A stretch of DNA of 64,000 nucleotides from Vicinamibacterales bacterium (GCA_965229825.1 CBDDJQ010000010.1:159417-223416); one strand, 5' to 3'. Numbered from the stretch's first letter, positions 8,910 to 60,912 are shown. The notes: generated from the sequence alone by a model not told the origin. Translations and numbers: made by a program.

Positions 8910-11872
8910 GTCACGAGAGGCGATACCCGCGGCGTCTGATCGAGGTGGACCTGCCGATCAAGGAGATCTCGGCGCACGCGCGACGGGAGAAATCGATCCG
9001 GCACGGGCACATCTCGACGCTGCACATCTGGTGGGCCAGGCGGCCGCTGGCGGCGTGCCGGGCGGTGCTCTGCGCAGCGCTCTGGCCCGATCCGGCCGAT
9101 CCGCTCTGCCCGGAGTGCTTCCGCAAGGAGGCAGCCGAGGCGATGCGGGCTTGGCGCGACCGGCGCGGCGGGAAAGCGCGCGACTGGGCGAAGCCAGTGA
9201 ACGTGCGCGAGGCGCTGCTTGCGTTCATCGCGGAGTTCGCAAACTGGGACAACTCAACCGACAAGAGCTTCCTCGAGACCGCGCGGCATCTCACCCAGGC
9301 GGCGCATGAGTCGCTCGGTGGAGTGCCAGGGACGCGGCCGCTCGTCGTGGACCCGTTCGCCGGCGGAGGGGCGATCCCGCTTGAGGCGCTGCGCATCGGG
9401 GCCGACGCATACGCCTCGGACCTCAACCCCGTCGCGGTGCTGCTCAATAAGGTCGTGCTCGAATACATCCCGAAGCACGGCTCGCGGCTGGCTGAGGAGG
9501 TGCGGCGCCGGGGCGCGTGGGTGAAGGAGCAGGCGGAAGCGGAGCTCGGCCGGTTCTATCCCAAGGACGCCGACGGCGCGGGGCCGATCGCGTATCTCTG
9601 GGCGCGGACGATCCGCTGCGAGGGGCCGGGGTGCGGGGCCGAGGTGCCGCTCGTGCGCTCGTTGTGGCTGTCGAAGAAGCGGGGGCAGAGCGTCGGCATG
9701 CGGCTCGTGCCGCGCAGGGATCGGAGCGGCGTCGAGGTGGAGATCGTCGAGAACCCGAAGGTCGCCGAGGCCAACCAGGGCACGGTGCGCCGCGGCTCGG
9801 CGACCTGTCCGTGCTGCGGCTACACGACGCCCGTGGCCTCGGTCCGCACGCAATTCAAGGCGCGCCGGGGCGGCGCAGCCGATGCGAAGCTTCTGTGCGT
9901 GGTGACGACCCGTGCCGGGCAGCGGGGGCGTTCCTACCGGCTGCAGGAGGAGCGGGATCTGGCGGCGGTGCGGGCGGCGGCCGAGGAACTAGCGCAACGA
10001 GAACGGCACCATAGCGACCGCCTGTCCCTAGTGCCGAACGAAAAGATCTCCCTCAACGAGATTCGGCGTATCAGCGCTCCCATCTACGGCATGACGACGT
10101 GGGGCGACGTATTCAGCCCCCGCCAGTTGCTGGCGCTCGCGGCGCTGGCGCGGCTGGTGCGAGAGGCGGGCGAGCGGTGTCGCACGGAGTGCGACGCAGC
10201 CTTGGCCGAGGCGGTGGCGACGTGTCTGGCGCTGGTGGTGGACCGGCAGGCCAACGCAGCCACATCCCTTTCCCGTTGGCACATTGCTGGAGAGAAGATT
10301 GAAGGTGTCTTCGCTCGTCAAGCAATTCCTATGGTGTGGGACTTCGCCGAGGCGAACCCTTTTTCCGACGCAACGGGCGACTTCTCAGGCGCCCTCGAGT
10401 GGGTCGCCAAGGTCTGCGAGGCCAACGTACCGACCACCACGGTCCCGGGCCACGCCCAGCTCGCCTCCGCCACGGTGCACCCGCTGCCTGACGATGCTGC
10501 CCACGCCTTCGTCACCGACCCGCCCTACTACGACGCCGTACCATACGCGTACCTTTCGGACTTCTTCTACGTCTGGCTACGGCGCACACTCGGAAGCACG
10601 TTTCCGGCGCTGTTTCCGGGCGAGTCTGTGCCCAAAGACGAGGAGATTGTGGTCGATCGACCGCACGAGCTTTCCACGTCGACCAAAGACATCGCCTTCT
10701 ACGAGGCGAATCTTCAGCGCGCGTTCGCGGATGGCCGCCGAGTGCTCATGCCAGAGGGCATCGGAACGATCGTTTTCGCCAGCAAGACGACGGCTTCCTG
10801 GGAGGCGATCCTCCAGGCGATGGTCGACGCAGGATGGGTCATTACGGCGTCGTGGCCTATCGACACGGAGATGGCTTCAAAGGTTGCAGCCATCGGCCAA
10901 GCCCGCCTGATGTCCTCTGTCCACCTCGTCTGCCGCCCGCGAGAGAACCCCGGCGGCTCGCTGCGCGAGGACGCCGTCGGCGACTGGCGGGCGGTGCTGC
11001 GCGAGCTGCCCGAGCGTATCCACGCCTGGATGCCGCGCCTCGCCAGGGAAGGCGTCGTCGGCGCCGACGCGATCTTCGCCTGCCTCGGCCCCGCACTGGA
11101 GATCTTCTCCCGCTACTCCCGCGTCGAAAAGGCCTCGGGCGAGGGCGTCGAGCTGCGGGATTACCTGGAGCAGGTCTGGGCCGTGGTGGCCCGCGAGGCG
11201 CTCTCGATGATCTTCGAGGACGCCGACGCGACGGGCCTCGAAGAGGACGCGCGCCTCACGGCCATGTGGCTGTGGACGCTCTCGACGAGCGCGAACGGCG
11301 GGAGCGGCACATCGAGCGCTGCTGGTGGGGACGAGGAAGGAGGCGACGCGGGCGACGACAAAGTGGAGAGCGCCCCGAAAGCCAAGACGGGTGCGGGGTT
11401 CACGCTCGAGTTCGACGCCGCGCGCAAGATCGCCCAGGGGCTCGGCGCCCACCTTGAGGACCTCGGCCGCGTGGTCGAGATCAAGGGCGGCCAAGCACGG
11501 CTCCTCTCCGTCGCCGAGCGGACCCGGCACCTCTTCGGCAAGGACACCGAGCGAGCGCCAGCCAGGCGCGTGAAGAAACAGCAGCTTATGCTGTTCGAGG
11601 AGCTGGAGGCGGCCGAGAAGGACGCCAGCTGGGGCGACGTCGGTCTGCCGCCAGCCGGCGAGACCACCCTCGACCGCGTGCACCAGGCCATGGTCCTCTT
11701 CGCCGCGGGCCGGAGCGAGGCACTCAAGCGCTTCCTGGTCCAGGAGGGCATCGGCCGCGACACGCGCTTCTGGAAGCTCGCACAGTCGCTCTCGGCGCTC
11801 TACCCGATCGGCACCGACGAGAAGCGCTGGGTCGACGGCGTGGTGGCGCGCAAGAAGGGATTGGGGTTCTGA
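8906..11872 (+). CDS. DUF1156-domain DNA methyltransferase with a Zn-ribbon (N6-adenine or N4-cytosine type; HmaB-like, DrmMI-like)
   Basis: The N-terminus RRLIEVDLPIKEISAHARREKSIRHGHISTLHIWWARRPLAACRA is the DUF1156 signature. The AdoMet motif is VVDPFAGGGAIPLEA, the catalytic motif is FVTDPPYYD, and the Zn-ribbon is CEGPGCGAEVPL...CPCCGY. The start overlaps the helicase stop (ATGA). Confidence 0.9.
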   Translation: MSHERRYPRRLIEVDLPIKEISAHARREKSIRHGHISTLHIWWARRPLAACRAVLCAALWPDPADPLCPECFRKEAAEAMRAWRDRRGGKARDWAKPVNVREALLAFIAEFANWDNSTDKSFLETARHLTQAAHESLGGVPGTRPLVVDPFAGGGAIPLEALRIGADAYASDLNPVAVLLNKVVLEYIPKHGSRLAEEVRRRGAWVKEQAEAELGRFYPKDADGAGPIAYLWARTIRCEGPGCGAEVPLVRSLWLSKKRGQSVGMRLVPRRDRSGVEVEIVENPKVAEANQGTVRRGSATCPCCGYTTPVASVRTQFKARRGGAADAKLLCVVTTRAGQRGRSYRLQEERDLAAVRAAAEELAQRERHHSDRLSLVPNEKISLNEIRRISAPIYGMTTWGDVFSPRQLLALAALARLVREAGERCRTECDAALAEAVATCLALVVDRQANAATSLSRWHIAGEKIEGVFARQAIPMVWDFAEANPFSDATGDFSGALEWVAKVCEANVPTTTVPGHAQLASATVHPLPDDAAHAFVTDPPYYDAVPYAYLSDFFYVWLRRTLGSTFPALFPGESVPKDEEIVVDRPHELSTSTKDIAFYEANLQRAFADGRRVLMPEGIGTIVFASKTTASWEAILQAMVDAGWVITASWPIDTEMASKVAAIGQARLMSSVHLVCRPRENPGGSLREDAVGDWRAVLRELPERIHAWMPRLAREGVVGADAIFACLGPALEIFSRYSRVEKASGEGVELRDYLEQVWAVVAREALSMIFEDADATGLEEDARLTAMWLWTLSTSANGGSGTSSAAGGDEEGGDAGDDKVESAPKAKTGAGFTLEFDAARKIAQGLGAHLEDLGRVVEIKGGQARLLSVAERTRHLFGKDTERAPARRVKKQQLMLFEELEAAEKDASWGDVGLPPAGETTLDRVHQAMVLFAAGRSEALKRFLVQEGIGRDTRFWKLAQSLSALYPIGTDEKRWVDGVVARKKGLGF

Positions 11873-12468
11873 TGGCGGTGGACGCGCGCAAGTGGACCCG
11901 GTCGCTGTACGCGACGCTCGACGGCGGCCGCGCAACCACAGCCGAGCTGCGCCAGGCTTCGGTCGCTGGGGACCTCACTCGCTGGACGCAGGCCCTCACG
12001 GGTCTCGTGGCCCAGTCGCTGCGTGGCCTCGAGCTGGAAGTGGCGGCCAAGGGCCACCGGTGTACGGCACTGCCGGTGGAGCGGGAGGAGTATCTCGCCC
12101 TCGACGTGACCGCTTTCCCGGACACTGGAAGCGCTTGGCGTTTCCCGGTCGCCGTCTGCGAGCTCGAGAACTCGGCCCGCGACGAGGTGGTTGCGTACGC
12201 GCTCTGGAAGGTGCTCTGCATCCGGCACGCACTGCGGGTGGTTTTCTGCTACCGGAGCGCGCGCACCGATGCACCGAGGCTCATCGGGTTGCTCTCCGAC
12301 CGAGTGGTCGGCGCGATGGCGCTTCCGGATCGTGAACGACTGAGCGCCGACACGCTCGTGTTCGTCGGATCGCGCAGCGAGTCGGACACGTTCCCGTACG
12401 GCTTCTTTCAGGCTTGGTGCCTGAATCGGAACCTCGGCCGATTCGAGACCTTCAGGTGGCAGGAATAG
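11872..12468 (+). CDS. Hypothetical 198-aa protein embedded in the helicase-methylase-ATPase operon
   Basis: The ORF start overlaps the methylase stop (TGATG at 11870-11874). It sits on the same strand and ends 18 nt before the DUF499 gene. I recognise no family. A weak nuclease-like pattern is present: YLALDV...VAVCELENS...YALWK. Confidence 0.6.
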   Translation: MAVDARKWTRSLYATLDGGRATTAELRQASVAGDLTRWTQALTGLVAQSLRGLELEVAAKGHRCTALPVEREEYLALDVTAFPDTGSAWRFPVAVCELENSARDEVVAYALWKVLCIRHALRVVFCYRSARTDAPRLIGLLSDRVVGAMALPDRERLSADTLVFVGSRSESDTFPYGFFQAWCLNRNLGRFETFRWQE

Positions 12469-12486
12469 TCTGAGAGGAAGCACGCG

Positions 12487-15276
12487 ATGGCATTGAAACC
12501 CTGGTACAAGGTCGTGACACCACGCGAGGACCTGCGCGAGGGGCGGCCGCTCGACGCCTCGGAGTTCGCGGTCCACCTGGACCAGGTGCGCGAGGGGCGG
12601 GCGCCGGCGGTCTATCAGCAGCCGGCCGACTTCTTCGAGCGCACCTACCTCACCAAGAACCTAGCAGGCCTCGCCGCCGAGGTCATCCGCCGGCTCTCCG
12701 GGATCAAGGTCGCGACCTCCGCGGTCTTCAACATGACCACCCAGTTCGGCGGCGGAAAGACGCACGCGCTGACGCTCCTCTACCACCTTGCGCGGGGCGG
12801 ACCGGAGGCCGCCGGGTGGAAGGGCGTGCGGACGCTTCTCGAGATGGCCGGCGTGACTGAGATCCCCCGGGCCGCCATGGCGGTATTCGTCGGCACCGAG
12901 TTCGACTCCATCGCGGGCCGGGGCGGCGCGGACGGCACGCCCGTCCGCAAGACCCCCTGGGGCGAGATCGCCTGGCAGCTCGGCGGGGCGGAGGGACTCC
13001 GCGTCGTGGCAGAGCACGACGCGTCGCTCACGGCACCTGGTGGAGACGTCGTCGCGCGGATTCTGCCCGCGGATCGGCCCGTGCTGATCCTGCTCGACGA
13101 GCTAATGAACTACGTAAGCCGCAGTCGCAAGAGCGGCCTCGGCGGCCAGCTGTACAACTTCCTCCACAACCTGTCCGAGGTCGCCCGCTCGCGCGACAAC
13201 GTGGTGCTCGCCGTCTCGATTCCAGCATCGGAGCTCGAGATGACGGCCGAGGACCAGTCCGACTACGAGCGCCTCAAGAAGCTCCTCGACCGGCTCGGCA
13301 AATCGGTGATCATGTCGGTCGAGGCGGAGACGTCGGAGATCATCCGGCGTCGGCTCTTCGAGTGGCACGGCCTGCCCGCGGACGCTTCGAAGACCGTCGG
13401 CGAGTACGCGGAGTGGATGACCGCGCACCGGCACCAGCTTCCGAGCTGGTTCCCCGTGGACAACGCCCGCGAGGCCCTGGCGGCGAGCTATCCCTTCCAC
13501 CCGTCGGTGCTCTCGGTCTTCGAGCGTAAGTGGCAGGTGCTTCCACGCTTCCAGCAGACCCGCGGGACCCTGCGGCTCCTTGCCCTGTGGGTCTCGCATG
13601 CCTACGTCGAAGGCTTCAAGGGCGCCCACAAGGACCCGCTGATCACGCTCGGCACGGTACCCCTCGACAATCCGACGTTCCGGGCGGCGGTGTTCGAGCA
13701 GCTCGGCGAGTCGCGCCTCGAAGGGGCGGTGACGACCGACATCGTCGGCAAGGAGTACGCGCACGCGCTGCGCCTCGACAAGGAGGCGACAGCCGAGGTC
13801 AAGAAGGCTCGCCTTCACCGCAAGGTGGCGACGGCGATCTTCTTCGAGTCGAACGGCGGCCAGCAGCGCGGCGAGGCAACGCTACCCGAGGTTCGGCTCG
13901 CAGTGGCCGCGCCCGACCTCGACATCGGGAACGTCGAGCAGAGCCTCGAGGCGCTGGCGGACACTTGCTACTTTCTCTCGGCCGAGAAGAACCGCTACCG
14001 ATTCAGCTTCCAGCCGAACCTCAACAAGCTCCTCGCCGATCGGCGTGCGAGCGTCCCTACGAACGCGACCCGCGACCGGGTACGCGCCGAGATCCAGAAG
14101 GTCTTCGCGGCCGCCAAGGGCGTCGACCGCATCTACTTCCCGGAGCGCCCGAACCAGCTGCCCGACCGCGCGGCACTCACGCTCGTCGTGCTTGCGCCGG
14201 AGAACGAAGCCGGCCCGGCCACGACACACCTCATGGAAACGATGGCGCGCGAGCACGGCTCGTCGTCGAGGACCTACAAGAGCGCGCTACTTTGGTGCGT
14301 GGCCGAGAACGGCGCGCTACTCCCCGACGAAGCGCGCAAGGTGCTCGCCTGGGAGGACATCGACGCCGAGTCGGAGACGCTCCGGATCGACGAATCGCAG
14401 CGCCGCCAGCTCGACGAGAACTTGAGGCGCGCTAAGCGGGACCTCCGGGAGGCTGTCTGGCGCACCTATAAGAACGTCTTCCTCCTCGACGACACGAACG
14501 CGCTCCACAGAATCGACCTCGGCCTCGTGCACTCGAGCGCCGCGGAGTCGCTCGTGGGCCTGATCCTCGACCGCCTCCAACAGGAAGACCTCGTCGTCGA
14601 TGGCGTGAGCCCGAACTTTCTGGTCCGGAACTGGCCTCCGGCACTCCCGGAGTGGAGCACCAAGGCCGTCCGTGACGCCTTCTTCGCCTCCCCGAAGTTC
14701 CCGCGGCTGCTGAATGCCGACGCGGTCAAGCAGACCATCTGCCGTGGCGTCGAAGCTGGCATGATGGCCTACGTCGTAAAGGAGACGAGCGGCAAGTACG
14801 ACCCGTTCATGTATCGCGAGTCCCTCAGTGAGGCCGACCTCGAGGTCGCCGACGATGTTTTCCTGATCTCGAAGGAAGCCGCCAACGCGTACATCGAGGG
14901 TCGGGTGGCCAGCGAGGACGGCCAGCCGTCTGTTTCCTCTCCAGACCAGCCCAAGCAGCCTGGGGGCGAACCACGCGAGGCCGGCATCACGGGTGGATCT
15001 ACATCCGTGCCGCCAGCCGGGACGACGCCGGATGTTGTGCCCGGTTTCCGCTGGACCGGGAGCCTTGCGCCGCAGAAGTGGATGAACTTCTACACGAAGG
15101 TCCTGGCCCGCTTAGCCGACGCCAAGGGGCTCACGCTCTCGCTGACCGTCGACGTTCAGCCCGAGAGCGGTATCTCGAAGGCCAAGGTCACGGAGATGAA
15201 GGTCGCACTAAGAGAACTCGGGATGTCAGAGGACGTGCACATCGGCGACACTCACGATTCCGGGCGCACGGAGTGA
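12487..15276 (+). CDS. DUF499-family P-loop ATPase (HmaC-like)
   Basis: The N-terminus ALKPWYKVVTPREDLREGRPLDASEFAVHLDQV is typical of DUF499. Walker A is TQFGGGKTHAL and Walker B is VLILLDELMNY. The SD GAGAGGAAG lies upstream. Confidence 0.9.
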   Translation: MALKPWYKVVTPREDLREGRPLDASEFAVHLDQVREGRAPAVYQQPADFFERTYLTKNLAGLAAEVIRRLSGIKVATSAVFNMTTQFGGGKTHALTLLYHLARGGPEAAGWKGVRTLLEMAGVTEIPRAAMAVFVGTEFDSIAGRGGADGTPVRKTPWGEIAWQLGGAEGLRVVAEHDASLTAPGGDVVARILPADRPVLILLDELMNYVSRSRKSGLGGQLYNFLHNLSEVARSRDNVVLAVSIPASELEMTAEDQSDYERLKKLLDRLGKSVIMSVEAETSEIIRRRLFEWHGLPADASKTVGEYAEWMTAHRHQLPSWFPVDNAREALAASYPFHPSVLSVFERKWQVLPRFQQTRGTLRLLALWVSHAYVEGFKGAHKDPLITLGTVPLDNPTFRAAVFEQLGESRLEGAVTTDIVGKEYAHALRLDKEATAEVKKARLHRKVATAIFFESNGGQQRGEATLPEVRLAVAAPDLDIGNVEQSLEALADTCYFLSAEKNRYRFSFQPNLNKLLADRRASVPTNATRDRVRAEIQKVFAAAKGVDRIYFPERPNQLPDRAALTLVVLAPENEAGPATTHLMETMAREHGSSSRTYKSALLWCVAENGALLPDEARKVLAWEDIDAESETLRIDESQRRQLDENLRRAKRDLREAVWRTYKNVFLLDDTNALHRIDLGLVHSSAAESLVGLILDRLQQEDLVVDGVSPNFLVRNWPPALPEWSTKAVRDAFFASPKFPRLLNADAVKQTICRGVEAGMMAYVVKETSGKYDPFMYRESLSEADLEVADDVFLISKEAANAYIEGRVASEDGQPSVSSPDQPKQPGGEPREAGITGGSTSVPPAGTTPDVVPGFRWTGSLAPQKWMNFYTKVLARLADAKGLTLSLTVDVQPESGISKAKVTEMKVALRELGMSEDVHIGDTHDSGRTE

Positions 15277-15299: not shown

Positions 15300-17494
15300 C
15301 CGCCGGAACCACCCGGGAACGTGTCCGAACGTCGGGTCACTTCCGCGCTTAGGACAAGTGTCCCGCGCGGAGGCCCGCAGCGCATGACTGACAACATCCG
15401 AGGTCTTCGGTTAGCGGGTCGTGGCGAGAAAATCCACGAAAAGGTGTGCAGGTACGGCGGGCGTGTGCCGATACGTGAAGTATGGCGCGCAAGAGCGATG
15501 ACCGCGGCGGTTCGAAGGGTCCTGGGCCTCAGCGAGACCCTCGGGACGTGCGCATCGAGCGCCTCGAACGAGACAAGGCGAAGCTGATCGAGGAGCGGGA
15601 TCACTGGAAGCGCCGCAGCGAGCATCTGGAGAAGGAGCTCGAGGCGGCGCGGCGCGCCGGCCGCCGACAAGCGGCCCCCTTCGCCAAGGACCGTCCGCAG
15701 GGACGCGGCGGGCGTCCCGGGCGGCGAGCCGGGGCGGAGTACGGCAGGCAGGGGCGCCGCCGGCCGCCGACGCAGGCTGACGAGACCCACGTGGCGCCGG
15801 CCCCGACGAGCTGTCCGGACTGCGGCGGCGCGGTCGCGCTGGACCGTGTGGCGTCGCAGTATCAGGAAGACCTGCCCGAGGTGCGTCCCCTCGTGCGGCG
15901 CTTCGACATCGAGGTGGGCCACTGCTCGCAGTGTCAGCGGCGCGTGCAGGGCCGGCACGCGCTGCAGACCTCCGACGCGTTGGGCGCGGCTGCCGCTCAA
16001 CTGGGCCCGAACGTCGCCGCGCTGGTCGTCGAGTTGCACACCGAGCTGGGCATGCCGCTGGAGAAGGTCGTCCGCGTTCTGCGGACGCAGTTCGGACTGT
16101 CGGTGACCAAGGGCGGCCTGGTCCAACTGCTGCACCGCACCGCCGACGCGGCGGCGCCCGCGTATGCGGCGCTGCGCGAGCAGGTCCGCTGCAGTCCGGT
16201 GGTCACGCCGGATGAGACCGGCTGGCGGGTGAACGCGATCCTCCACTGGCTGTGGGCGTTCGCCACCCCGGAGACGACGGTCTATGCCATCTGCGACGGC
16301 CGGGGGTTCGCCGAGGCGGCGGCGGTTCTCGGCCCCGACTTCGCCGGCGTGCTGGTGCGGGACGGGTGGGTGGCCTATCGCGGCTTCAAGAAGGCGCCGC
16401 ATCAAACGTGCCTGGCCCACCTCTTGAGACGGTGCAAGGACTTGCAGGCCGCTCATCCCGACAGCCCGTGGGCGGGCGCGGTGCAGGCGGTCCTGCGGGA
16501 CGGCCTCGCCCTGCGGACCCGCTCGAACGCGGGCGAAATCAGTGAGCACGGTCTGGCGTCGGCCCGCGGTCGGCTCGCCGCCCGGCTCGGCCGGCTGATC
16601 GACACCGCGCCGCCGTTGGCCGCCGCCGAGCGCTTCGCCAAGCACTTGGCCAACGAATTCCCGGCGGTGTTCCTCTTCTTGTGCGACCCGTCGATCGACG
16701 CCACCAACTGGCGGGCCGAACAGGCCATCCGACCCGCAGTGGTCACGCGTAAGGTCTGCGGCGGCAACCGCACCCGGCGCGGGGCCGACACCCAGCAGGT
16801 GCTGGCCAGCGTCGTGCGTACCGCCCGCCAACGCAACCTCGACCCGCGCTCGCTGATCACGACGATGCTGTGCGCCCCCGAACCCGTCGTGCCCGAAGCG
16901 CTTGCGTTGCCGCCGCCCGCCTGACGCCGGGCGGCGTGGAAACCGCTCATCCGCTTCCCGTCCTCCTGCGCGCCCCCGGCCCGCACTCAATCCGCGCCGT
17001 CCCGCCGCCGCCCGAGCCCGCGACCCGTGGGTTTCGCCGCCAGCGGCGGGAACGCCACCAGGCAGCTCGCCGCTGTTCGCGGCGTCGGTCCCCGCCGCGT
17101 GTCCCTCATGGCGGCGGCGCCGTCGCCGGGACCCGCGTGGTCTCGCGCCGCCGCGGGGGACCGGGGCGCCGCGGAGCCGCCAGACCCAGCGCTCCGCGAG
17201 CGAACCAGCCGGACCGACCGTCGCTGCCGATGACGCGCCGACAAGCTGCCTTGGCGACAATGGGACTGCGAGTCTGCCATGGGCGCTCTCAACAGCGACA
17301 TGCTCTGCACAGGTCCGCCGGCCGGCGAGTCGCCCCTCGTGCCCCTCGTTTCCGGCCTCCTCACAGCCACAGAGACCGACGCTGCGATGCCGACAAATCT
17401 GCGCGGGGACAACCTCGTCATGCAGCAACTTCCCCGACGGCTCGGTTCATTTCCGCCCATTTCCACTGGAGAAAATCAGTCCCGCACCCGGTAA
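15300..17494 (+). mobile_element. IS66-family insertion sequence. The ends are not resolved; the limits are set by the flanking gene ends.
   Basis: It contains a single IS66-type transposase. It fills the whole gap between the DUF499 stop (15276) and the start-less caspase ORF (17495). Only a weak candidate inverted-repeat pair is seen (about 15303-15328 versus about 17476-17500). Confidence 0.4.
15482..16924 (+). CDS. IS66-family transposase
   Basis: It has a coiled-coil N-terminus and a zinc finger (CPDCGG...CSQCQRR). The DDE region reads VVTPDETGWRVNAILHWLWAFATPETTVY...VLVRDGWVAYRGF...HQTCLAHLLR. Confidence 0.9.
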   Translation: MARKSDDRGGSKGPGPQRDPRDVRIERLERDKAKLIEERDHWKRRSEHLEKELEAARRAGRRQAAPFAKDRPQGRGGRPGRRAGAEYGRQGRRRPPTQADETHVAPAPTSCPDCGGAVALDRVASQYQEDLPEVRPLVRRFDIEVGHCSQCQRRVQGRHALQTSDALGAAAAQLGPNVAALVVELHTELGMPLEKVVRVLRTQFGLSVTKGGLVQLLHRTADAAAPAYAALREQVRCSPVVTPDETGWRVNAILHWLWAFATPETTVYAICDGRGFAEAAAVLGPDFAGVLVRDGWVAYRGFKKAPHQTCLAHLLRRCKDLQAAHPDSPWAGAVQAVLRDGLALRTRSNAGEISEHGLASARGRLAARLGRLIDTAPPLAAAERFAKHLANEFPAVFLFLCDPSIDATNWRAEQAIRPAVVTRKVCGGNRTRRGADTQQVLASVVRTARQRNLDPRSLITTMLCAPEPVVPEALALPPPA

Positions 17495-18050
17495 CCGAAT
17501 ACCATCCGAGCTACAGGATCACGACGCGCTCGTGCCCTCATCGTGGGAGTGTGCGAGTACGCCAACGCAAGTTCCTTAGAGTTCAGCGTAGCCGATGCAC
17601 AGGACGTCGCTGAGGTGTTGATGTTCGAGGAGTATGGCTTCACCGTCGAGACCTTATTCGACGAGCAAGCGACGCGGCCGCGGCTTCTTAAAGCACTGCA
17701 TGAACTGCTAAATAGTGACGCCGATAACCTGCTATTCTACTTCTCGGGCCACGGGGCCGCACCCCCCTACGGCCCGTACCTCTGCACGACGGACGCCAGT
17801 CCCGACGACCTTGGAATAGATTTAGCGTTCCTCGCCAGGCTCGTTAGCGCCCGCGCGCGACCAGGACGGACAACGACTATCGTTTTGGATTGCTGTCATG
17901 CGGGCGCGATGACTTTCGCCACCGCACAGGGCGCGACGCCGTTGCTGCGGCCGCCGGAAGTCACTAACTCATTCATTTCACTTCCAGACGGCAATGTGTT
18001 GTTTGCCGCGTGTCGACCCGATGAGGCTGCGTATGAATGTACGGGATTAG
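17495..18050 (+). pseudogene. Caspase-like (peptidase C14/orthocaspase) domain. This is the 5' segment of a caspase-kinase fusion gene. No usable start codon lies before GTG 17543, and the segment is interrupted at 18050 by IS1380.
   Basis: The sequence reads RALIVGVCEYANASSLEF...DNLLFYFSGHGAA (catalytic His) ...TTIVLDCCHAG (catalytic Cys) ...LFAACRPDEAAYE. G+C is lower than in the flanking DNA. Confidence 0.8.
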
Positions 18051-19743
18051 CCTGCATTATTCACGAAGGTCCAGATTCGACCGCCAAAGGGCGTGATCGG
18101 CGCAGGAATGGGTCTCGGACATCGTCGCCTGCAAGCGGAGCCGGGGTTGAGCAGCCGACCGGGGGGGGCATGACGGACGCGAGGGTTGGGCAGCGACAGC
18201 CCCGCCGGCGGCGCGGCCCATGCCGCCCAGGAAGCAGGTGGGCGCGGCGCAACGGGTGGGCTATCCGGCGCGCGCGCCTAGCGCGAGTGCGATGTGCCGC
18301 CACGCCTCGAGGTGCGGCGTCGAGCGCGGCAGATGCAGAACCACGCGGCGGACCGAGCGGACGACGTGGACCCCCAGCTTCAGCAGCCGGTCGCGCAGCC
18401 ACGTTACCTGGCTGCGGGCACACGCAGTACGCGCCGCCCGCAATCGCAGTTCCTGCATGAGCACGTAGGCCGCGGCGGTCAGGAAGACGCGCAACTGGTT
18501 CGCCGGGAACAGACAGCAGCTCGTGCGGTCGATCTGCAGCCCATCGAGCAGTTCCTTGATCCGATTCTCGATGTCCCCGCGAGCACAGTAGACCTTCTCA
18601 TAGATGAAGCGCGGCGTCTGCCGCAGATTCGTCACCACGAACCGCGGGTTGTCCCGCGGCTCGCGGTCTCCGAGGCGAACGACTTCGGCCTTGATCACGA
18701 CCCGGCGCTCGTGGTCCCACGTGCCGGCGGCGTAGCGGGTGTCGGTATAGACGTGCGCGGTCTCGCCACCGACCTCGCTCTGCGCGCGGGCCACCTGCAT
18801 GGCGGACTCCGCATGCCGCTGCAACACCGCGTTCTTCGCCATCGCCACGACATAGTCGAGCCGGGGCTCCGCATCCAGGAAATCGAAGATCTCCGGGGTC
18901 GCAAAGCCCCCGTCGAGCCGGACGAGAAACCGCGCCCGCGGAAACGCGGCCCGCAACAGCGGGAGCAACCGACACAGCAGGCCGAGGGTCCCGTCGGCGG
19001 CCACTGCCTTCCCGGGCCGCAGCACCGCCGCGCACAGATACTGCTCCGCCTCGCGGTCGAAGCTCAGAAACCCCAGCATCGGCAGATAACACCAGCCGCC
19101 ATAGTGCCCGTTGAAGAACGTGAGCTGCTGGGCCCCGTGCGTCAGGTCGTCGGTCGGGTCCAGATCGATCGTGATCCGGCGCGCCCGCCCGTGCAGGCGG
19201 CGCCGATGACGCTCGATGACGCACGCTGCCAACTCGCGCCCCATCCGGTAGAGCACGGTGCGGCGCGCGCCGTTCTCGAATCGCGAGATCGTGGGTTGCG
19301 ACGCCAAGGGCGCGCCGGACACCGGGTCCCGCCCGAGCAGCAGCTTGTGGATGGGGTCGTCGGCCAAGTGGTCGGCATCGTTGCCATCGGGATGACCGCA
19401 CGCGATGCCGAAGACCCGCTGGCCGATCAGGTCCGCGAGCGTGTGCCGAATCTTCCCGGGTGCGCGTTTGTCGGCCAGACACCGGGCGAACGCCTTGACC
19501 AAGCCGTACACGCGCTCGGCCGCCTTGAGCAGGACGGCGCCGCCGTCGGAACTCGCGTGCTCCTGGTTGAACGTGGCGACGAGGGGCTTGTCGAACAGAT
19601 CCGGAAACAGAACACTCTGTGGTATCGTGTCAGGTGTCACGCAGGGGCCTCCGTCGTGGCTAAACGTTTATATACACTACGTTTGTACCACACGGAGGCC
19701 CTTGTGTCTCTCCCAGAATCAACACCTTCACGCATAATCCGGG
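18051..19743 (-). mobile_element. IS1380-family insertion sequence, complete, 1693 bp, with inverted repeats and a 4-bp TTAG target duplication
   Basis: The left inverted repeat is 18051 cctgcattattcacgaaggtccagattc. The reverse complement of the right inverted repeat is cccggattatgcgtgaaggtgttgattc (19716-19743). They match at 20 of 28 positions. TTAG occurs at 18047-18050 and again at 19744-19747. Confidence 0.9.
18261..19640 (-). CDS. IS1380-family DDE transposase
   Basis: Diagnostic stretches present: GHPDGNDADHLADDP, SQPTISRFEN, QLTFFNGHYGGWCYLP, ARGDIENRIKELL. Confidence 0.9.
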   Translation of the reverse strand: MTPDTIPQSVLFPDLFDKPLVATFNQEHASSDGGAVLLKAAERVYGLVKAFARCLADKRAPGKIRHTLADLIGQRVFGIACGHPDGNDADHLADDPIHKLLLGRDPVSGAPLASQPTISRFENGARRTVLYRMGRELAACVIERHRRRLHGRARRITIDLDPTDDLTHGAQQLTFFNGHYGGWCYLPMLGFLSFDREAEQYLCAAVLRPGKAVAADGTLGLLCRLLPLLRAAFPRARFLVRLDGGFATPEIFDFLDAEPRLDYVVAMAKNAVLQRHAESAMQVARAQSEVGGETAHVYTDTRYAAGTWDHERRVVIKAEVVRLGDREPRDNPRFVVTNLRQTPRFIYEKVYCARGDIENRIKELLDGLQIDRTSCCLFPANQLRVFLTAAAYVLMQELRLRAARTACARSQVTWLRDRLLKLGVHVVRSVRRVVLHLPRSTPHLEAWRHIALALGARAG

Positions 19744-21339
19744 TTAGGGCACAGCATATTCTCCTTTCACCTTCTTGAGGCGCTGATTGGGAACGCCGCA
19801 AACGAGGAAGGGCAAGTAACTGCATCCAGTCTGCACGACTACCTATCCAGGTCACTTCAAGGGCACGCCATGGCGCAGACGATGGTGTACCGAGGGGATA
19901 TTGCCGGCGTGTTTCTGATTGGCGCAGGGTTCGCCCCGGTGCGGCGTGCGCCAGCCAGCGGGACACGATTGCATGCTATTGTGCGCGACGCACAGGAGCA
20001 CCTGAACACGTTTCAGATGGAGACCGGTCGCGACTATGCCAATAGACAAGTGTGGTCGCGCACAGCCTACAAGGCTGCATGTCAGCGCCTGCGACCGATT
20101 GTTGCGTGGTTCGGCAAGAGAGAGAGTGAGTACCTGGAGCTAAAGAATCACAAGCCGTTTCAGATCTTAATGGATGAGATACGTGCTTGGCAGGCGCGAC
20201 TGGGCGATATCGAGAATGTCTCCGAAACCCCGTGGGGCACCGTTGAACGACGTCTTGGGTACGGAACGTTCGGAACCGTGTGGCTTTTTCAGGGTAAACC
20301 TGGCGGTAGCGAAATAGCTCGGAGAGCGTTCAAGATATATCACGGTCAGGACATACGCCTGCGTGACAAAGTGAGTCGCTTCCGCCGTGGCTTTGAAGCA
20401 ATGAAGATGCTAGATCATCCACTGGTGGTCAAGGTCGGAGAACTATATGAGTGCCCGCTGGGTTTTTCCATGGAGTACATCGATGGACCTAACTTTAGAG
20501 AGTTCACGGGAACACTCGATGTTCCAGAACAGTTACGCCTCCTCCTGACGGTTGCGGAAACGATTGCGCATGCCCACAGTAGAGGTGTGGTGCATCGAGA
20601 CGTCAAACCCGAGAACATCCTGCTCCAAGAAACCAACGGCATCTGGCTGGCGCACCTTGCCGACTTTGACTTGGCGTGGTTTTCGACGGCGAGTATGGTT
20701 ACAAGAGAAGCGATAGGTAGCGCATTCTATTGCGCACCTGAGCAGGTTCACAGGCCGCGCTCGCCGATGGCGCGAGACCCGCGGGTGGACCAGTACGCAT
20801 TCGGTCAGCTACTATTTTTTGGGCTTACAGGGTCTGATCCACTCCAGAGCGCTGCGGACAACATGGATGAGTTGCGCGGCCGCCTACGCCAATGGGGCTC
20901 GGGCGATGCAGCGAGTGCAGTGTTGCGGCTATACGAGCGCGCAACCGCACTACGGCAAGGCGAGCGGTACTCAACTGTACGGGAAATCTGCGATGAGCTT
21001 CACAGAATTATATTACTTGCGGAGACGGATCCAGCCCAGGAGATATCGACGGAACGAATGATTAGGGAGTTGGTATTCGGACTTGTGGGAATAGCAGACT
21101 CCGCGGCCCGCAGCACAGGGGCATTTCGGTCATTGTCTGAAAGGACTATGGTGGGTGTTCAAACCGTAACAACCGGACCACACAAATTGTCCCTGCGCTT
21201 TCGGTTAGAACGCATTGGTGCGTTGACGATGGAGGGTCTTGACAATAGGATGGCCCGCCGAAGGCTCAATACGCGCGTTGATGAGGTGGTGCGCGAGTTT
21301 CCTAATACAACCCGGGAATCGGGGCGGCAGGGAACATAT
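19744..21339 (+). pseudogene. 3' segment of the caspase-kinase fusion: the caspase p10-like end, a linker, a Hanks-type Ser/Thr protein kinase domain and a C-terminal region. It abuts or is cut by ISL3 at 21340.
   Basis: It is in frame with 17543-18050 once the IS and one TTAG copy are removed (...YECTGL|GHSIFSFHLLEALIGNAANEEGQVTASSLHDYL). Kinase motifs: GYGTFGTVW, AFKIY, HRDVKPENILL, DFDLAW, YCAPEQ. The track ORF 19870..21441 runs into the IS inverted repeat. Confidence 0.85.
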
Positions 21340-23079
21340 GAGTCTCCTCAAATGCGTGTGGGTAGCGGCGGCGCCAGTTCTATGCCTCCACAGCAGAGGA
21401 ACAGCATCGAGATCAACGCGCCGGGCGAGTGGAAGCCATAGGCGCGACGCGCGATCACCCGCAGCTTGTTGTTGATGCCCTCCACCGGACCGTTCGTCAT
21501 CTTCGTGTCCAGGTACGCCAGGATGCCTTCAGCGTGTTTCCGAATCGTACGCCCCAGCTTCACGAACGGCGTCAGGCGGGACCGCGCAGCCCACTCCAGC
21601 CACTCATCGAGCAGCGCCGGCGCATCCTCGGGTGTCGCCTGCCCCAGGATCGTCGCCAGGTACTCCTTCAGTTCGTAGGCCCGGTCCAGCGCCCGGTTCT
21701 TACGACGCAACGTCTCCAGACGCCGGGCCTCACCAGGCCTCAGCCGCGCCGGGTGCTTCAGCAACGCATAGCGCGTCCCCTTGAGCGCCTTCGCATCCTC
21801 CGGCTCCGAGGCCAGCCGCCGCTGCTCCGAACGCCGCACCTCGTCAACCGCATCCGCCGCAAGCCGTTCAACGTGAAACCGGTCGAACACCACCCGCGCG
21901 TGCGGAACCCACGCCCGCAGCGCCTTCTGCCAGCTCGACGCCAGGTCCGCCGTCACCAACTCGATCCGCGCACAGCCACCAGGTCCCAACTGCTCGAAGA
22001 AGGCCCCCAGCGTCTCGGCGCTGCGCCCCCGCCCCGCCCAAACCACCCGACGCTCGTCATGGTCAACCACGATCGTCAGGTAGCGGTGACGCTTCCGGTA
22101 GCTGAACTCATCGACGCCGATTCGTCTCAGCTTGGCGAACCGAGCCCCGTCCAGCCGCCGCGCCACAACCCGTTCCACGATGCTGCCCACCGTCACCCAC
22201 GATATCCCCAGCAGGCGGCTCACCGCCGTCCGGTCCGTCACCTGCGCCAGATACGCCGCCAATTCCTCGAACCCCGACGTGAACACGCTGCTGCCGCTCG
22301 CCCACGGCACCTGCTCCACCTTCACCCCGCGGCAACGCCGGCACGACACCCGCCACGGCGCATACCGCAGCCACGCCGGCATCCGGCCCCAGGACAGATG
22401 CCGCCACTCGCGCACCGGCTGCCGGTCATACCGCGGCGACCGCTTCCCGCACGTCCCGCACCGGGAACGCCGCCACGCCGGCTCCACCGACACCGTCAAC
22501 GGACCGTCGGCGGCCATTTCCACCTGCTTGACGTACATCTGCGTGACACCCAACAGCCGCCGTAGTAACGTAGTCAGACGCATGGGGCTCTCCTCCTCGC
22601 GGGTCGTGGTGATACACGCCCATGAGACCAGGAAGCCCCTTGCGTTTGCAACCGCTTCCGCCAAGCGAGACGACGCACGCGGCCCCGACAACACCCTTGG
22701 CCCCGCCCAACGGGCGTCCGCCGCCGGCGCCGGGACCCGAGGTGGCCGTTGGGGCAATCAGCCAGCGTCTATCCCCGAACCGCCAGCCGTCGCGCTTTCC
22801 GCGTTGTCGTGGACGGCCGGGACGCCCCCGTCCAGGCCGGGCCGCAAGGCCCATATCTGCTGCTTGAGCGGAGGGACGGACGGTGTGTCACCCGAAGGGC
22901 CGCAGCGCAGCGAAGGACGCGCGTAGCGCGTTGACACGCCGGCCGGCCCGCAGCTACTCCGCTCCGACTATATCCCGCCACGGTGCGCCACGCCCGCCGC
23001 CGGTCAGGTGAACTGCCAGCACCCCTCGCCGACCCGCCGATCGCGCCTCAACCCACCCACACCCGTTTGAGGAGAGCCC
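21340..23079 (-). mobile_element. ISL3-family insertion sequence, about 1740 bp, with roughly 27-bp terminal inverted repeats and no recognisable target duplication
   Basis: The left inverted repeat at 21340 is gagtctcctcaaatgcgtgtgggtagcg. The reverse complement of 23051-23079 is gggctctcctcaaacgggtgtgggtgggt. Confidence 0.75.
21348..22583 (-). CDS. ISL3-family transposase
   Basis: The protein begins MRLTTLLRRLLGVTQMYVKQVEMA. It carries a zinc finger (CGTCGKRSPRYD...CRRC) and the stretch IGVDEFSYRKRHRYLTIVVD...VTADLASSWQKAL...RFHV. The SD GAGGAGGAGAG sits before the ATG at 22583. The longer track ORF to 22757 is not supported. Confidence 0.9.
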   Translation of the reverse strand: MRLTTLLRRLLGVTQMYVKQVEMAADGPLTVSVEPAWRRSRCGTCGKRSPRYDRQPVREWRHLSWGRMPAWLRYAPWRVSCRRCRGVKVEQVPWASGSSVFTSGFEELAAYLAQVTDRTAVSRLLGISWVTVGSIVERVVARRLDGARFAKLRRIGVDEFSYRKRHRYLTIVVDHDERRVVWAGRGRSAETLGAFFEQLGPGGCARIELVTADLASSWQKALRAWVPHARVVFDRFHVERLAADAVDEVRRSEQRRLASEPEDAKALKGTRYALLKHPARLRPGEARRLETLRRKNRALDRAYELKEYLATILGQATPEDAPALLDEWLEWAARSRLTPFVKLGRTIRKHAEGILAYLDTKMTNGPVEGINNKLRVIARRAYGFHSPGALISMLFLCCGGIELAPPLPTRI

Positions 23080-23283
23080 AAAAAGCACAATCAGTGGCAA
23101 TGGGGGCGAGAAACCAGTCACTGGCAATCGCAGCGAGAGACGTAGCTCCGGTGAACGCGAAGACGGCGTTGGGAACGGTCCCAGCGTGTACATTAACCTG
23201 CAGTCTCATCGGATGCCACACCCGACCAGATAGACCAGATTTTCGAGAGCATGGCAAAGCACATTTATCGCGAGGGGTGATAG

Positions 23284-23802
23284 GTGAACACGACCAAAGC
23301 CCGTGAAGTGCTGCTTCTTGCCAAGAGTGTGCAGGCTGAAGCGCCGATTATCTTCGTACCGCCCTCCGCGGGCACGCGGCCCAATAGCCAAGGTGTGTTG
23401 CCGCATGCCTGTGTGTCGGGTACTCGTGGTTACATTGAGCGGGTTGTATTTCAGATCAATGGCTGCTACGAGAAGGGTTGGTTCGATGGATGTGCGGTCA
23501 TGATGCGTCGGCTCTTGGAAACACTGATTATAGAGTGCTTCGAGGCGGCTGGCATCGCTAGCAAGATCAAGAATTCTCAGGGCGACTTCTTGATGCTCTC
23601 GGATTTGATCGTCGGGATGCTCTCGGAGACTAGCTGGAACCTTGGACGGATCACTCGACGGGCACTACCGAAACTAAAGAATATTGGCGATTGGTCGGCA
23701 CACAGCCGGCGATACAATGCACATCGAGAGGACATTGAACGGCTTGCCACAGACTTCCGGGTGGTTTGCCAAGAGCTGGTTTACTTGGCGAGCCTCAAAT
23801 AG
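23284..23802 (+). CDS. Hypothetical protein, DUF4145-like/HEPN-like, lower G+C
   Basis: The pattern AVMMRRLLETLIIECF...LKNIGDWSAHSRRYNAHRED resembles the DUF4145 pattern (...R.lLE...GN.aaH) and contains an R-x4-H motif. The family call is from memory of the motif only. Confidence 0.45.
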   Translation: MNTTKAREVLLLAKSVQAEAPIIFVPPSAGTRPNSQGVLPHACVSGTRGYIERVVFQINGCYEKGWFDGCAVMMRRLLETLIIECFEAAGIASKIKNSQGDFLMLSDLIVGMLSETSWNLGRITRRALPKLKNIGDWSAHSRRYNAHREDIERLATDFRVVCQELVYLASLK

Positions 23803-24014
23803 GGATGTGTTGCACGTTCGCGAGCATCCTAATCCTAATTCAGAACGGAGGATCCAGATTGGTCAGTTGGCTGAATATGCATCGAGAAGCCCCCGAGCGG
23901 CGTCCATGGCCCTTTGGGGCGGCGTGACCTCGCCCATTGGGGGTGATGGCAAGCGACTCGGGAACGACTGCGACGCGCCTTCCAGTCGGGCCACGCTGAG
24001 GCTACATTGTGCGG

Positions 24015-24356
24015 ATGAAGACGGTCGGAATCAGGACGCTGAAGAACCGCCTCAGCGAGTATCTTCGCGCCGCCCAGTCCGGCGAGCGGATTGCCGTTAC
24101 CAGGCGGGGAGTGCCGGTGGGCGACGTGGTTCCCCAGGCGCCCCCCGGCCTGGACCCCGACGAGGAACTGCTGCGGTTGGCGCGGGCGGGCGAGGTCCGG
24201 CTCGGCAGGTCCGACTCCGACTCCGGCGTCCAGTACACGCGCCCTCCCAGGGAAAGGCGGTTGGCGCACGATGAGCTCATGGCGATACTGAGCGCGGTCG
24301 GCGGCGATCGGCAAGTAGATTCCGCGCGGCGCCCAGTGCCTCCTCCAGGGACGTGA
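24015..24356 (+). CDS. Phd/YefM-type antitoxin, orphan. The 3' end runs into the convergent cca gene, so the C-terminus is probably not native.
   Basis: The N-terminus MKTVGIRTLKNRLSEYLRAAQSGERIAVTRRGVPVGDVVP is typical of the family. No toxin ORF follows. Confidence 0.6.
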   Translation: MKTVGIRTLKNRLSEYLRAAQSGERIAVTRRGVPVGDVVPQAPPGLDPDEELLRLARAGEVRLGRSDSDSGVQYTRPPRERRLAHDELMAILSAVGGDRQVDSARRPVPPPGT

Positions 24357-25698
24357 CTTCCCCGTCGAGCTGCCGTTCGTAGATGGCCTTGAGAATCCGC
24401 CCGATCTCGGGTCCGGGCGACAGGCCGAGCTGCAGCAGGTGGCGGCCGAGCAGGAGCGGCGCGGGGGCCTCGTGCTCGACGCCGAGGGCGCGGGCGCGGT
24501 CGAGGAACCAGTCCAGGGTCGCGGTGCAGTCGAAGTTGCCGGTGCGGCCCAGGCAGTCCGCTACGGACAGCCGGGCCAGCAAGTCCAGGTCGACCTTGCG
24601 GGCGAGGCGGCGGAAGGCGCCGTCGCCGACGGGGTCGGCGCCGCGGTGCCACATGCCCGGCTTCAGGTGCTGCGCGACGAGGTTGAACACTTGCTGCCGG
24701 ACGTCGTAGCCGGCGAGGGTGTGGATGTCGAGACGGTCGAGGAACGCGCGGGTGGGCGGCACGCCGGCCTCTTCGTGGCCGCGCGAGCGGATGCGGCCGT
24801 CGATGAGCTCGGTGGTGGCGGGCTTGCCGAGGTCGTGGCAGACGGCGCCGAGCATCAGGGCGACCTGCTGGGGGTGGTCGAGGTCGTCGATGCGGGTGCG
24901 GGCCTGGTCGATGACCATCAGGGTGTGCACCCAGACGTCGCCTTCGGGGTGCCATTCGGGCTCCTGCTTGCAGTCGATCAGGGCTTCGAGCTCGGGGAAG
25001 AGCCGGGCGATGACCCCCAGGCGGAGGGCGAGGTCGAATCCGAGCGAGGGCCGCTGGGCCTGCAGCAGCAGCTTCTCGAGCTCGCCCCAGATGCGTTCGG
25101 CGGGAAGGTCGTCGAGGGCGATGCCGCGGCAGATGCGCGTGGTGGCGTCGTCCGGGGTGAGTTCGAAGCGGGCCGCGAGCTGCAGGGCGCGGAGGACCCG
25201 CAGGCTGTCGTCTGCGAAAGTGGTCGGGTCCACCACGCGCAGGCGGCGGCGCTCGAGGTCGGCGCGGCCGCCGAAGGGGTCGATGTACTCGTCGCGCCGG
25301 GGGTCCCAGGCGATGGCGTTGACGGTGAAGTCGCGGCGTCGCGCCGCCTCTTCTACCGGCATCCAGGGATCGCCGGTGACGATGAAGCCGCGGTGGCCGC
25401 GGCCCTGTTTCGATTCGGTGCGGGGCAGCGAGACGTCGATGCCGCCGATCTTGTAGACGGTGAAGCTCTGGCCGACGGTGTTGACGGGGCCAATCTGGCC
25501 GAGGAGCTCGCGAAGCCGGTCGGCCTCGATGCCGTACACCTCGAGGTCGATGTCCTTCGACTCGCGCCCGTCGAGGTCGATGTCCTTCGACTCGCGGCCG
25601 AGCAGGCGGTCGCGCACCCAGCCGCCGACGTACAGGGCCCGTCCGCCGGCGTCGCGCACGCGGTCTGCGACGGCCGCCGCAAGCTGGGAGTCGGTCAT
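24277..25698 (-). CDS. cca: CCA-adding enzyme/poly(A) polymerase-family tRNA nucleotidyltransferase with an HD domain
   Basis: Motifs present: LYVGGWVRDRLLG...KDIDLEV, RRDFTVNAIAWD, and an HD region WVHTLMV...CHDLGKP. Confidence 0.85.
   Translation of the reverse strand: MTDSQLAAAVADRVRDAGGRALYVGGWVRDRLLGRESKDIDLDGRESKDIDLEVYGIEADRLRELLGQIGPVNTVGQSFTVYKIGGIDVSLPRTESKQGRGHRGFIVTGDPWMPVEEAARRRDFTVNAIAWDPRRDEYIDPFGGRADLERRRLRVVDPTTFADDSLRVLRALQLAARFELTPDDATTRICRGIALDDLPAERIWGELEKLLLQAQRPSLGFDLALRLGVIARLFPELEALIDCKQEPEWHPEGDVWVHTLMVIDQARTRIDDLDHPQQVALMLGAVCHDLGKPATTELIDGRIRSRGHEEAGVPPTRAFLDRLDIHTLAGYDVRQQVFNLVAQHLKPGMWHRGADPVGDGAFRRLARKVDLDLLARLSVADCLGRTGNFDCTATLDWFLDRARALGVEHEAPAPLLLGRHLLQLGLSPGPEIGRILKAIYERQLDGEVTSLEEALGAARNLLADRRRPRSVSP
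25541..25600. repeat. Perfect-but-one 30-bp in-frame tandem duplication inside cca
   Basis: The sequence tcgaggtcgatgtccttcgactcgcgSccg occurs twice. It encodes GRESKDIDLD/GRESKDIDLE. Confidence 0.95.
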
Positions 25699-60890: not shown

Positions 60891-60912
60891 GGGCCCGCCA
60901 CCCCTCACCCGC

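Follow-up and report, generated by a model that had tools for sequence, protein, structure and literature searches.

A caspase-like protease fused to a Hanks-type Ser/Thr kinase is encoded by one broken gene copy in a 64,000-nt stretch of DNA (GCA_965229825.1 CBDDJQ010000010.1:159417-223416; hereafter the window, which denotes the whole stretch that was analyzed), whose host belongs to the Acidobacteriota and probably to the Vicinamibacterales. This locus is a pseudogene with three separate insertion sequence (IS) insertions and a lost tail, and it represents the remains of a stand-alone gene of approximately 746 codons for a four-part protein. Intact relatives share a fixed layout of approximately 740 amino acids (aa), consisting of a metacaspase-like protease, a three-helix linker, a Hanks kinase, and a family-specific C-terminal domain, and both enzymatic centres are under selection. 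We read the family as a single-gene module for conflict or anti-phage defence that moves horizontally and in which the kinase would gate the protease, and give this reading a probability of about 0.5. It draws on purifying selection, a patchy cross-phylum spread, a G+C content foreign to the host, and the frequent location of the genes in defence or mobile regions; in addition, the nearest curated kinase models are antiphage (PD-T4-6 and MAD6) and the nearest caspase model belongs to a conflict system (EACC1-associated). The parts themselves, C14 peptidases and Hanks kinases, are known, and both the IS elements and the neighbouring Hma defence system are ordinary, whereas the fixed protease–kinase architecture is uncharacterised.

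Reconstruction of the interrupted gene

The remaining pieces of the gene (15384-15402, 17511-18050, and 19748-21339) all lie on the plus strand. The first comprises codons 1-6 (MTDNIR), starting at ATG 15384, and the first base of codon 7; GGAGG is present approximately 10 nt upstream of this ATG, and a scan of the region upstream of it revealed neither a promoter nor a terminator. Codon 7 is split by a 2100-bp element on the plus strand (15403-17502), which has a single transposase open reading frame (ORF; 15482-16924) with Pfam matches to DDE_Tnp_IS66 (E=1.1e-36) and zf-IS66; no tnpA or tnpB was found in it. Its terminal inverted repeats, GTCTTCGGTTAGCGGGT / GTATTCGGTTACCGGGT, agree at 15 of 17 positions. 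Perfect 8-bp copies of CATCCGAG flank it at 15395-15402 and 17503-17510, so that DDE transposase, inverted repeats, and duplication together place it in the IS66 family. When this element and one copy of CATCCGAG are excised, the frame joins ATG 15384 (MTDNIR|ATGSRRARALIVGV) and the N-terminus reads MTDNIRATGSRRARALIVGV, which is comparable to the N-termini of homologues, such as MNQPRRSRALIVGI in P0003 and MNGPRRARALIVGV in L001 (GTG-AAT-GGA-CCA-CGA...).

The second piece contains codons 7-187 (the last one partial) and encodes the N-terminal two thirds of the metacaspase-like domain, including His87 (17750-17752, in FYFSGHGAA), Asp133, and Cys135 (17894-17896, in VLDCCHAG). At codon ~187, the gene is interrupted by an IS1380-like element of 1693 bp on the minus strand (18051-19743), which encodes a 459-aa transposase (18261-19640, minus strand; Pfam DDE_Tnp_1_4, PF13701, E=2.7e-121). 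The element is bounded by imperfect inverted repeats, CCTGCATTATTCACGAAGGT and CCCGGATTATGCGTGAAGGT, which open with CC (CCTGCATTAT... / CCCGGATTAT...), and by a TTAG duplication at 18047-18050 and 19744-19747. We take it to be a member of IS1380, assuming that DDE_Tnp_1_4, a size of ~1.7 kb, CC-starting repeats, and a 4-5 bp duplication are the traits of that family. Deleting 18051-19743 and one TTAG yields ...YECTGLGHSIFSFHLLEAL..., which aligns without gaps to 14 intact homologues, in agreement with an earlier proposal, made from the sequence alone, that the frame is restored in exactly this way.

The third piece (19748-21339) encodes the remainder of the caspase fold (to ~19923), the three-helix linker (~19954-20196), the kinase (~20236-21018), and most of the C-terminal domain (~21040-21339). 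In the repaired frame, the kinase motifs GYGTFGTV, AFK, HRDVKPEN, DFD, and APE are followed by approximately 160-200 further residues, close to the ~190 first estimated; the corresponding residues include Lys382 (20332-34), Gly401 (20389-91), Asp471 (20599-601), DFD (20662-70), Thr505 (20701-03), and the Glu518 of APE (20740-42). Pfam supports both enzymatic assignments in the repaired protein: Peptidase_C14 (PF00656) covers residues 12-223 with E=4.5e-17 and 63 bits (cut-off 21.4), and Pkinase (PF00069) reaches E=3.6e-26 and 92.6 bits (cut-off 31.7). The linker and the C-terminal domain are without Pfam annotation.

The gene is cut after ...RQGTY at 21339, that is, after codon 717, by an element on the minus strand (21340-23078) whose transposase domains assign it to the ISL3 family (Pfam DDE_Tnp_ISL3, E=2.2e-75, with HTH_Tnp_ISL3 and Zn_ribbon_ISL3), and which carries a transposase gene at 21348-22757 (minus strand) and 21-nt inverted repeats at 21343-21363 and 23055-23075 that are 90% complementary. 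Intact homologues run approximately 29 residues past this point (EVFVNV..KTM.GVERARK.LSRVIEAIER), and DNA similarity to L001 ends at 21341, 100 nt short of the end of the L001 gene. A search throughout the window for the lost tail (~29 codons and a stop) did not find it, and an open frame beyond the ISL3 element (23079-23306) was rejected as a continuation of the gene since it is unrelated to the family tail. No 8-bp target duplication was found around the ISL3 element with either plausible boundary, which, together with the absence of the gene tail beyond it, suggests that the last ~29 codons were lost in a deletion or rearrangement subsequent to the insertion.

The original prediction had described a split C14 protease–Hanks kinase gene at 17495-21339. 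Its identification of the gene was right, and so was its placement of a caspase fold with the His/Cys dyad at 17543-18050, although only the N-terminal part of the fold lies there. The boundaries have to be redrawn: the stop codon at 17492-17494, which sets the apparent ORF limit near 17495, sits inside the IS66-family element, the true start is ATG 15384, and the 3' end is truncated. Having missed the true 5' end and the 3' loss, the prediction also missed that the window copy cannot function. The repaired product was expected to have at least 700 aa and has 717 without the tail, compared to 727-776 aa in intact relatives.

It might be argued that the locus is still partly functional, with the upstream fragment acting as a free protease and a 523-aa ORF (ATG 19870 to 21441) as a free kinase plus C-terminal domain. 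This ATG-started ORF is indeed predicted by gene callers and recorded as a called product (P0008). However, it begins inside the caspase fold, has neither a promoter nor a ribosome-binding site of its own, is missing the final conserved strand-helix of the C-terminal domain, and is chimeric in that its final 34 residues are read from the ISL3 end. The protease fragment is placed behind a 2.1-kb IS and has lost the C-terminal third of its fold. Truncated family members in databases are located on short contigs and resemble gene fragments. Partial function is thus highly improbable. Automatic annotation would call the 19870-21441 fragment a protein kinase.

Apart from the IS lesions, the 717 repaired codons contain no further stop or frameshift and every catalytic residue is present, and for this reason the inactivation of the window copy looks recent. 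Compared to the L001 homologue (85% identical), the repaired gene has a ratio of nonsynonymous to synonymous substitution rates (dN/dS) of ~0.06 overall, 0.06 in the caspase domain, 0.14 in the linker, 0.03 in the kinase, and 0.10 in the C-terminal domain, all of them rough values given that dS is saturated. As had been noticed at the outset, the gene is poorer in G+C than its surroundings: its pieces have a G+C content of 0.56-0.59, the three IS elements 0.68-0.72 (0.72 in the IS66-family element against 0.59 in the gene it entered), and the surrounding genome ~0.70. Neither the insertion nor the domain matches nor this composition can be put down to chance. In summary, the caspase–kinase module is switched off in the window genome, and the dead copy serves as a pointer to intact orthologues, such as P0002 (71% identical) and the Streptomyces proteins P0100 and P0118.

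A conserved family with a fixed architecture

A search of 5.8 billion proteins revealed more than 100 full-length relatives of 730-750 aa with 35-85% identity, in all of which Peptidase_C14 precedes Pkinase. Their sources are Streptomyces, Micromonospora, Kitasatospora, Microbispora, a Desulfovibrionaceae metagenome-assembled genome (MAG), an unclassified MAG, and many metagenomes, where they are annotated only as 'protein kinase domain-containing protein', 'caspase family protein', or 'serine/threonine protein kinase'. The two findings by which the prediction had proposed to be judged, intact homologues with the same domain order and Pfam support for both Peptidase_C14 and Pkinase, thus both came out in its favour. 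A pattern scan of genome contigs added L002 (Streptomyces torulosus) and L003 (Amycolatopsis pittospori) as the only true members; the other 78 of 80 loci were discarded as ordinary kinases, the back-translated patterns (HRDVKPEN and others) being generic. None of 72,556 plasmids carried a full-length copy.

A profile of the C-terminal domain, built from the last 160 residues, matched only 179 of 1.84 billion cluster representatives (39 at E<=1e-30). The domain is always C-terminal, in shorter matches as well, and all full-length matches have 727-776 aa; this constant position and uniform size indicate that the architecture is fixed. Exchange of effector domains, which would favour a modular defence design, was also considered and rejected: no alternative architecture was seen, and the protease is never exchanged. 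An AlphaFold2 (AF2) model of P0002 (mean pLDDT 84.1, pTM 0.64) has four ordered modules, namely an alpha/beta protease (residues 7-241), three long helices (254-333), the kinase (~346-610), and a beta-beta-alpha-beta-beta-alpha domain with a long terminal helix (~617-744). The confidence is lowest in the loop after the catalytic Cys (133-144) and in the activation loop (491-506).

The closest homologue, L001, lies on a metagenome contig marked 2x and has a one-base frameshift near codon 30 (5712-5800), so that its gene was called from an internal Met; this may reflect a sequencing error, or else damage that arose independently in a second copy. IS21 genes are located 1.6 kb downstream of it.

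Conservation was counted in an alignment of 161 full-length members. The protease His is present in 160 of them, and the catalytic Cys and the Asp of DCCH in all. Likewise, the G-loop glycines, the Lys, HRD, the catalytic-loop Lys/Asn, the first Asp of DFD, and APE of the kinase are found in all 161 proteins, and the activation-loop Thr/Ser in 158. The kinase domain had been called complete, which is true of all its named motifs; it is not fully canonical, in that two residues expected of Hanks kinases, the alpha-C Glu and the Gly of DFG, are replaced in the window protein. When the window protein is aligned to AMPK alpha, Gly401 (RFRRGFEAM) takes the place of the Glu in 'ikREiq', and both this Gly and DFD in place of DFG are invariant (161/161). 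The domain is therefore an atypical, though catalytically equipped, Hanks kinase that may be active. Foldseek returned PknI and PknB as the best matches of the kinase domain (TM 0.73-0.77). Full-length Foldseek results were set aside, as they are dominated by kinases and their long alignments to AMPK and CaMKII (root mean square deviation 16-26 Å) are meaningless beyond the kinase domain.

The nearest solved sequences to the protease are plant metacaspase-4 (AtMC4, 6w8s, E=1.6e-5) and Geobacter GSU0716 (3bij). The DCCH motif is like that of Arg/Lys-specific metacaspases, and Asp133 presumably lines the S1 pocket as in TbMCA2; by this analogy, the protease probably cuts after Arg or Lys as metacaspases do. 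Hidden Markov model searches of Pfam and of PDB sequences gave no match for the C-terminal domain, and BFVD gave no confident one. The weak PDB Foldseek hits to YbjN and type III chaperone-like folds (E ~0.01, TM 0.40-0.46) were not accepted as a fold assignment.

Genomic context

The gene was said to lie in a defence/mobile island, and this is borne out by the complete Hma system directly upstream and by the three IS elements. PADLOC identified Hma as a complete and uninterrupted system on the plus strand (5466-15276), made up of three consecutive ORFs, namely the helicase HmaA (5466-8909, E=3.2e-190), the methylase HmaB (DUF1156; 8906-11872, E=7.1e-137), and the ATPase HmaC (DUF499; 12487-15276, E=8.8e-128), together with an intervening 198-aa ORF between HmaB and HmaC (11872-12468) that has no Pfam or PADLOC match. 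Only 107 nt separate the end of Hma from the start codon of the caspase–kinase gene, and the island ends near the CCA-adding enzyme gene on the minus strand (24277-25698).

The neighbourhoods of 13 loci (the window and twelve others) were surveyed within 8 kb. Recognised or candidate defence genes occur in six of them (window, L082, L084, L087, L090, and L001) and mobile-element genes (transposase, prophage, or integrase), again, in six. L082 has Druantia DruE, PDC-S68, HigB/HTH, PIN, and a transposase; in L084/L085, a 1079-aa Mrr_N-GmrSD protein (GmrSD/HEC-05) is adjacent; L087 (Streptomyces sp. N50) has ThsA-Macro and a TIR protein within 6 kb; L090 has an HEC-01 pair within 3 kb; and L001 has a patatin, PDC-M48B, and IS21. 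Tn3 and IS21 are found in L083, a Mu-like transposase, a CI-type repressor, and an integrase in L088, and a transposase in L089, while L086, L091, L002, and L003 have no recognised neighbour. This association with defence genes is suggestive, coming from a small sample without a background rate. No conserved neighbour was found among the 13 loci, which argues that the gene is a stand-alone unit.

In two distant members, a gene for a PP2C-family phosphatase directly follows the caspase–kinase gene, with a 2-nt gap after the stop codon in L088 (10223-10963) and a one-base overlap in L091 (10241-10912); both assignments are above the Pfam thresholds (PP2C 33.6 bits, PP2C_2 28.7 bits). None of the other 11 loci has such a gene, and in the window the downstream region has been replaced by the ISL3 element.

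These neighbourhoods bear on the possibility that the protein is an endogenous signalling or regulated-proteolysis protein (stress, development, or programmed cell death) without any role against phages, and whose location in variable regions would indicate dispensability only. Most named members come from actinomycetes rich in kinases and orthocaspases, a kinase with a PP2C phosphatase is a classic housekeeping signalling pair, seven of the 13 loci have no recognised defence gene nearby, and reviews ascribe to prokaryotic caspase homologues roles beyond cell death. Set against this are the patchy distribution across phyla (Acidobacteriota, Actinomycetota, and a Desulfovibrionaceae MAG) with only 179 clusters, the G+C content foreign to the host, the absence of a conserved partner or operon, the position of several genes directly beside Hma, GmrSD, Druantia, Thoeris-like, and HEC-01 genes or mobile elements, and the loss of the window gene to IS elements while the adjacent Hma stayed intact. 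On balance, we consider an endogenous role possible but rather doubtful.

The same neighbourhoods could also fit a selfish toxin or addiction module, in which the kinase and/or protease would be a growth-arresting toxin, autoinhibited or restrained by PP2C, with mobile elements carrying the module to stabilise themselves or to act in conflict between bacteria. The association with IS elements, Tn3, IS21, a Mu-like element, and an integrase, the toxin-antitoxin gene neighbours in L082, and the translationally coupled PP2C genes at two loci, which resemble a toxin-antidote pair, are in line with such a module, and three IS in one 2.2-kb gene would fit selection to silence a costly gene. However, most loci have no candidate antidote gene, no plasmid in the set mentioned above carries a full-length copy, and after the first IS had killed the gene, later insertions would have been neutral, so that three of them need no selection. 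The toxin explanation also shares ground with abortive infection, from which it is hard to tell apart. We regard it as unlikely.

With respect to the window itself, three IS within 2.2 kb beside an untouched 10-kb Hma system could reflect selection against a costly gene, but could equally reflect a neutral build-up of IS after the first insertion, perhaps helped by an IS target preference for the lower G+C content of the gene. The window copy illustrates in any case how a gene in a defence island can be silenced by several IS while the Hma system beside it stays intact.

Several other features of the window are recorded here. Past the ISL3 element, a patch of low G+C content (0.56; 23079-23810) has no similarity to the flanks of homologue loci and contains a 172-aa ORF (23284-23802) with a weak sub-threshold match to DUF4145 (E=5e-4); the patch may be further cargo of the same island. 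A small ORF (24015-24320, MKTVGIRTLKNRLSEYLR...) is convergent with the CCA-adding enzyme gene, whose 3' end it overlaps; judged by eye, the N-terminus of this ORF resembles a Phd/YefM-type antitoxin, and no toxin partner is evident. At the start of the window, an 858-aa ORF (15-2591) comprises seven tandem repeats of ~279 bp (17-1996, up to 99% identical) with Big_9 / cadherin-like domains, on account of which it is probably a surface adhesin; it may extend beyond the window start. Finally, the DnaX (tau/gamma) gene (60862-63093) contains degenerate direct repeats of ~50-130 bp in its C-terminal region (62592-62994, 77% G+C). The placement of the host is based on DnaX, which shares 82-84% identity with its counterparts in MAGs named Acidobacteriota or Vicinamibacterales and up to 94% with sequences lacking a taxon name.

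Proposed function

If the family is a conflict module, as we favour, the C-terminal domain and the kinase would constitute sensor and switch. Binding of a trigger would lead to kinase dimerisation and autophosphorylation on the conserved activation-loop Thr, and the kinase would then gate the cis-linked protease with its DCCH motif, which would cleave host or phage proteins so that growth of the infected cell stops. In some lineages, the abutting or overlapping PP2C might reset or restrain the switch. Alternatively, the kinase could be the effector, released or activated by the protease. A defence or abortive-infection role is plausible from the context in the six loci and by analogy, and the abortive-infection or signalling effector of the original prediction is a candidate reading on these grounds. 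The complete scheme, a one-protein abortive-infection system running from a private sensor through an atypical kinase to a metacaspase-like executioner, with a PP2C brake in some lineages, would make the family a single-chain prokaryotic counterpart of kinase–caspase death switches, and is put forward tentatively, with the odds rather against it.

Several points weigh against a role in conflict. The context survey covers just 13 loci with no background rate, more than half of them lack a recognised defence gene within 8 kb, and a few of them (L089 and L091, for example) appear metabolic or unremarkable. Developmentally complex actinomycetes, in which the family occurs most often, also employ kinases and caspase homologues in regulating themselves. 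The PADLOC and NCBIfam matches are to single domains only and are below the curated cut-offs where such exist, and no bacterial caspase–kinase single chain is described in the literature covered (orthocaspase reviews, conflict-system surveys, papers citing PD-T4-6, and an actinobacterial defence survey). In addition, the invariant alpha-C Gly and DFD would be compatible with an unusual regulation or mode of action of the kinase, and the C-terminal domain is without a confident structural relative, which makes its sensor role a guess.

Comparison with known systems

The protease half is most similar to orthocaspases and bacterial metacaspases (MEROPS C14B, such as Microcystis MaOC1 and Geobacter GSU0716, and also plant metacaspase-4), with which it shares the PF00656 match and the His-Cys dyad in SGHG and DCCH(A/S)G. 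Multi-domain fusions are typical of orthocaspases, and the same is true here; the difference is that the protease of this family is always joined to the linker, the Hanks kinase, and the private C-terminal domain, a layout for which no described orthocaspase was found.

On the kinase side, the closest systems are the kinase antiphage proteins Stk2 (Staphylococcus), PD-T4-6 (E. coli), MAD6 of MADS, and PglW of BREX, the likeness being in matches of the kinase domain. PADLOC gave PD-T4-6 (E=2.5e-32) as the best match, followed by mad6 (E=1.2e-29), both over residues ~350-620, and also Stk2 and PglW; among the models listed for the window protein, 19 of 25 are PD-T4-6, and the best ones fall within residues ~350-625 of 717. 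Since the PD-T4-6 profiles, with 292-564 positions, leave the caspase domain, linker, and C-terminal domain uncovered, the protein is not a member of PD-T4-6. In NCBIfam, the best kinase match is MAD6 with 99-116 bits against a cut-off of 460, whereas PknB_PASTA (Stk1-PknB) reaches 84-109 of 450 bits and PglW 40-53 of 990. PD-T4-6 and Stk2 resemble the caspase–kinase family in being single genes without a fixed partner. The family stands apart from all four systems in having Gly at the position of the alpha-C Glu and DFD for DFG. To our knowledge, none of Stk2, PD-T4-6, MAD6, and PglW carries a caspase domain.

Caspase-fold proteases of conflict systems (EACC1-associated, gasdermin-activating, and type III CRISPR CHAT) are executioners in immunity and share the fold. 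The PADLOC 'caspase' model matches residues 14-279 of the window protein (E=1.3e-18), and the best caspase match in NCBIfam is the EACC1-associated caspase NF047832 (75-95 bits, cut-off 140). In those systems, the protease is activated by separate sensors (STAND NTPases, cyclic-nucleotide signals, or CRISPR complexes) and has dedicated substrates encoded nearby, whereas the caspase–kinase family has no such conserved partner or substrate gene in the 13 loci, and its only built-in candidate switch is the kinase. Surveys of conflict systems by the Aravind group (Kaur et al. 2020, 2021) list S/T kinases and caspases only on different proteins, as effectors that are alternatives to each other.

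In eukaryotes, RIPK1/RIPK3 with caspase-8 and the caspase-cleaved kinases offer a conceptual likeness only, that is, a Ser/Thr kinase coupled to a caspase-fold protease in a life-or-death decision. These switches consist of separate proteins and use death-fold or RHIM adaptors; no adaptor domains were detected in the family, and no homology beyond the shared domain superfamilies is evident between the two.

No dedicated model for a caspase–kinase fusion exists in PADLOC-DB v2, NCBIfam, or Pfam; current detectors treat these proteins as generic kinases (PADLOC and NCBIfam) or leave them partly unannotated (Pfam). The caspase–kinase proteins would be a further candidate among single-gene defence families. 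Both Hanks kinases and caspase-fold proteases are known in bacterial immunity, but as separate proteins under other sensors. With both active sites invariant, a sensor-like private C-terminal domain, and a PP2C partner in some loci, a fixed and conserved fusion of this kind would provide a compact setting for studying how phosphorylation acts on a caspase-like executioner in bacteria.

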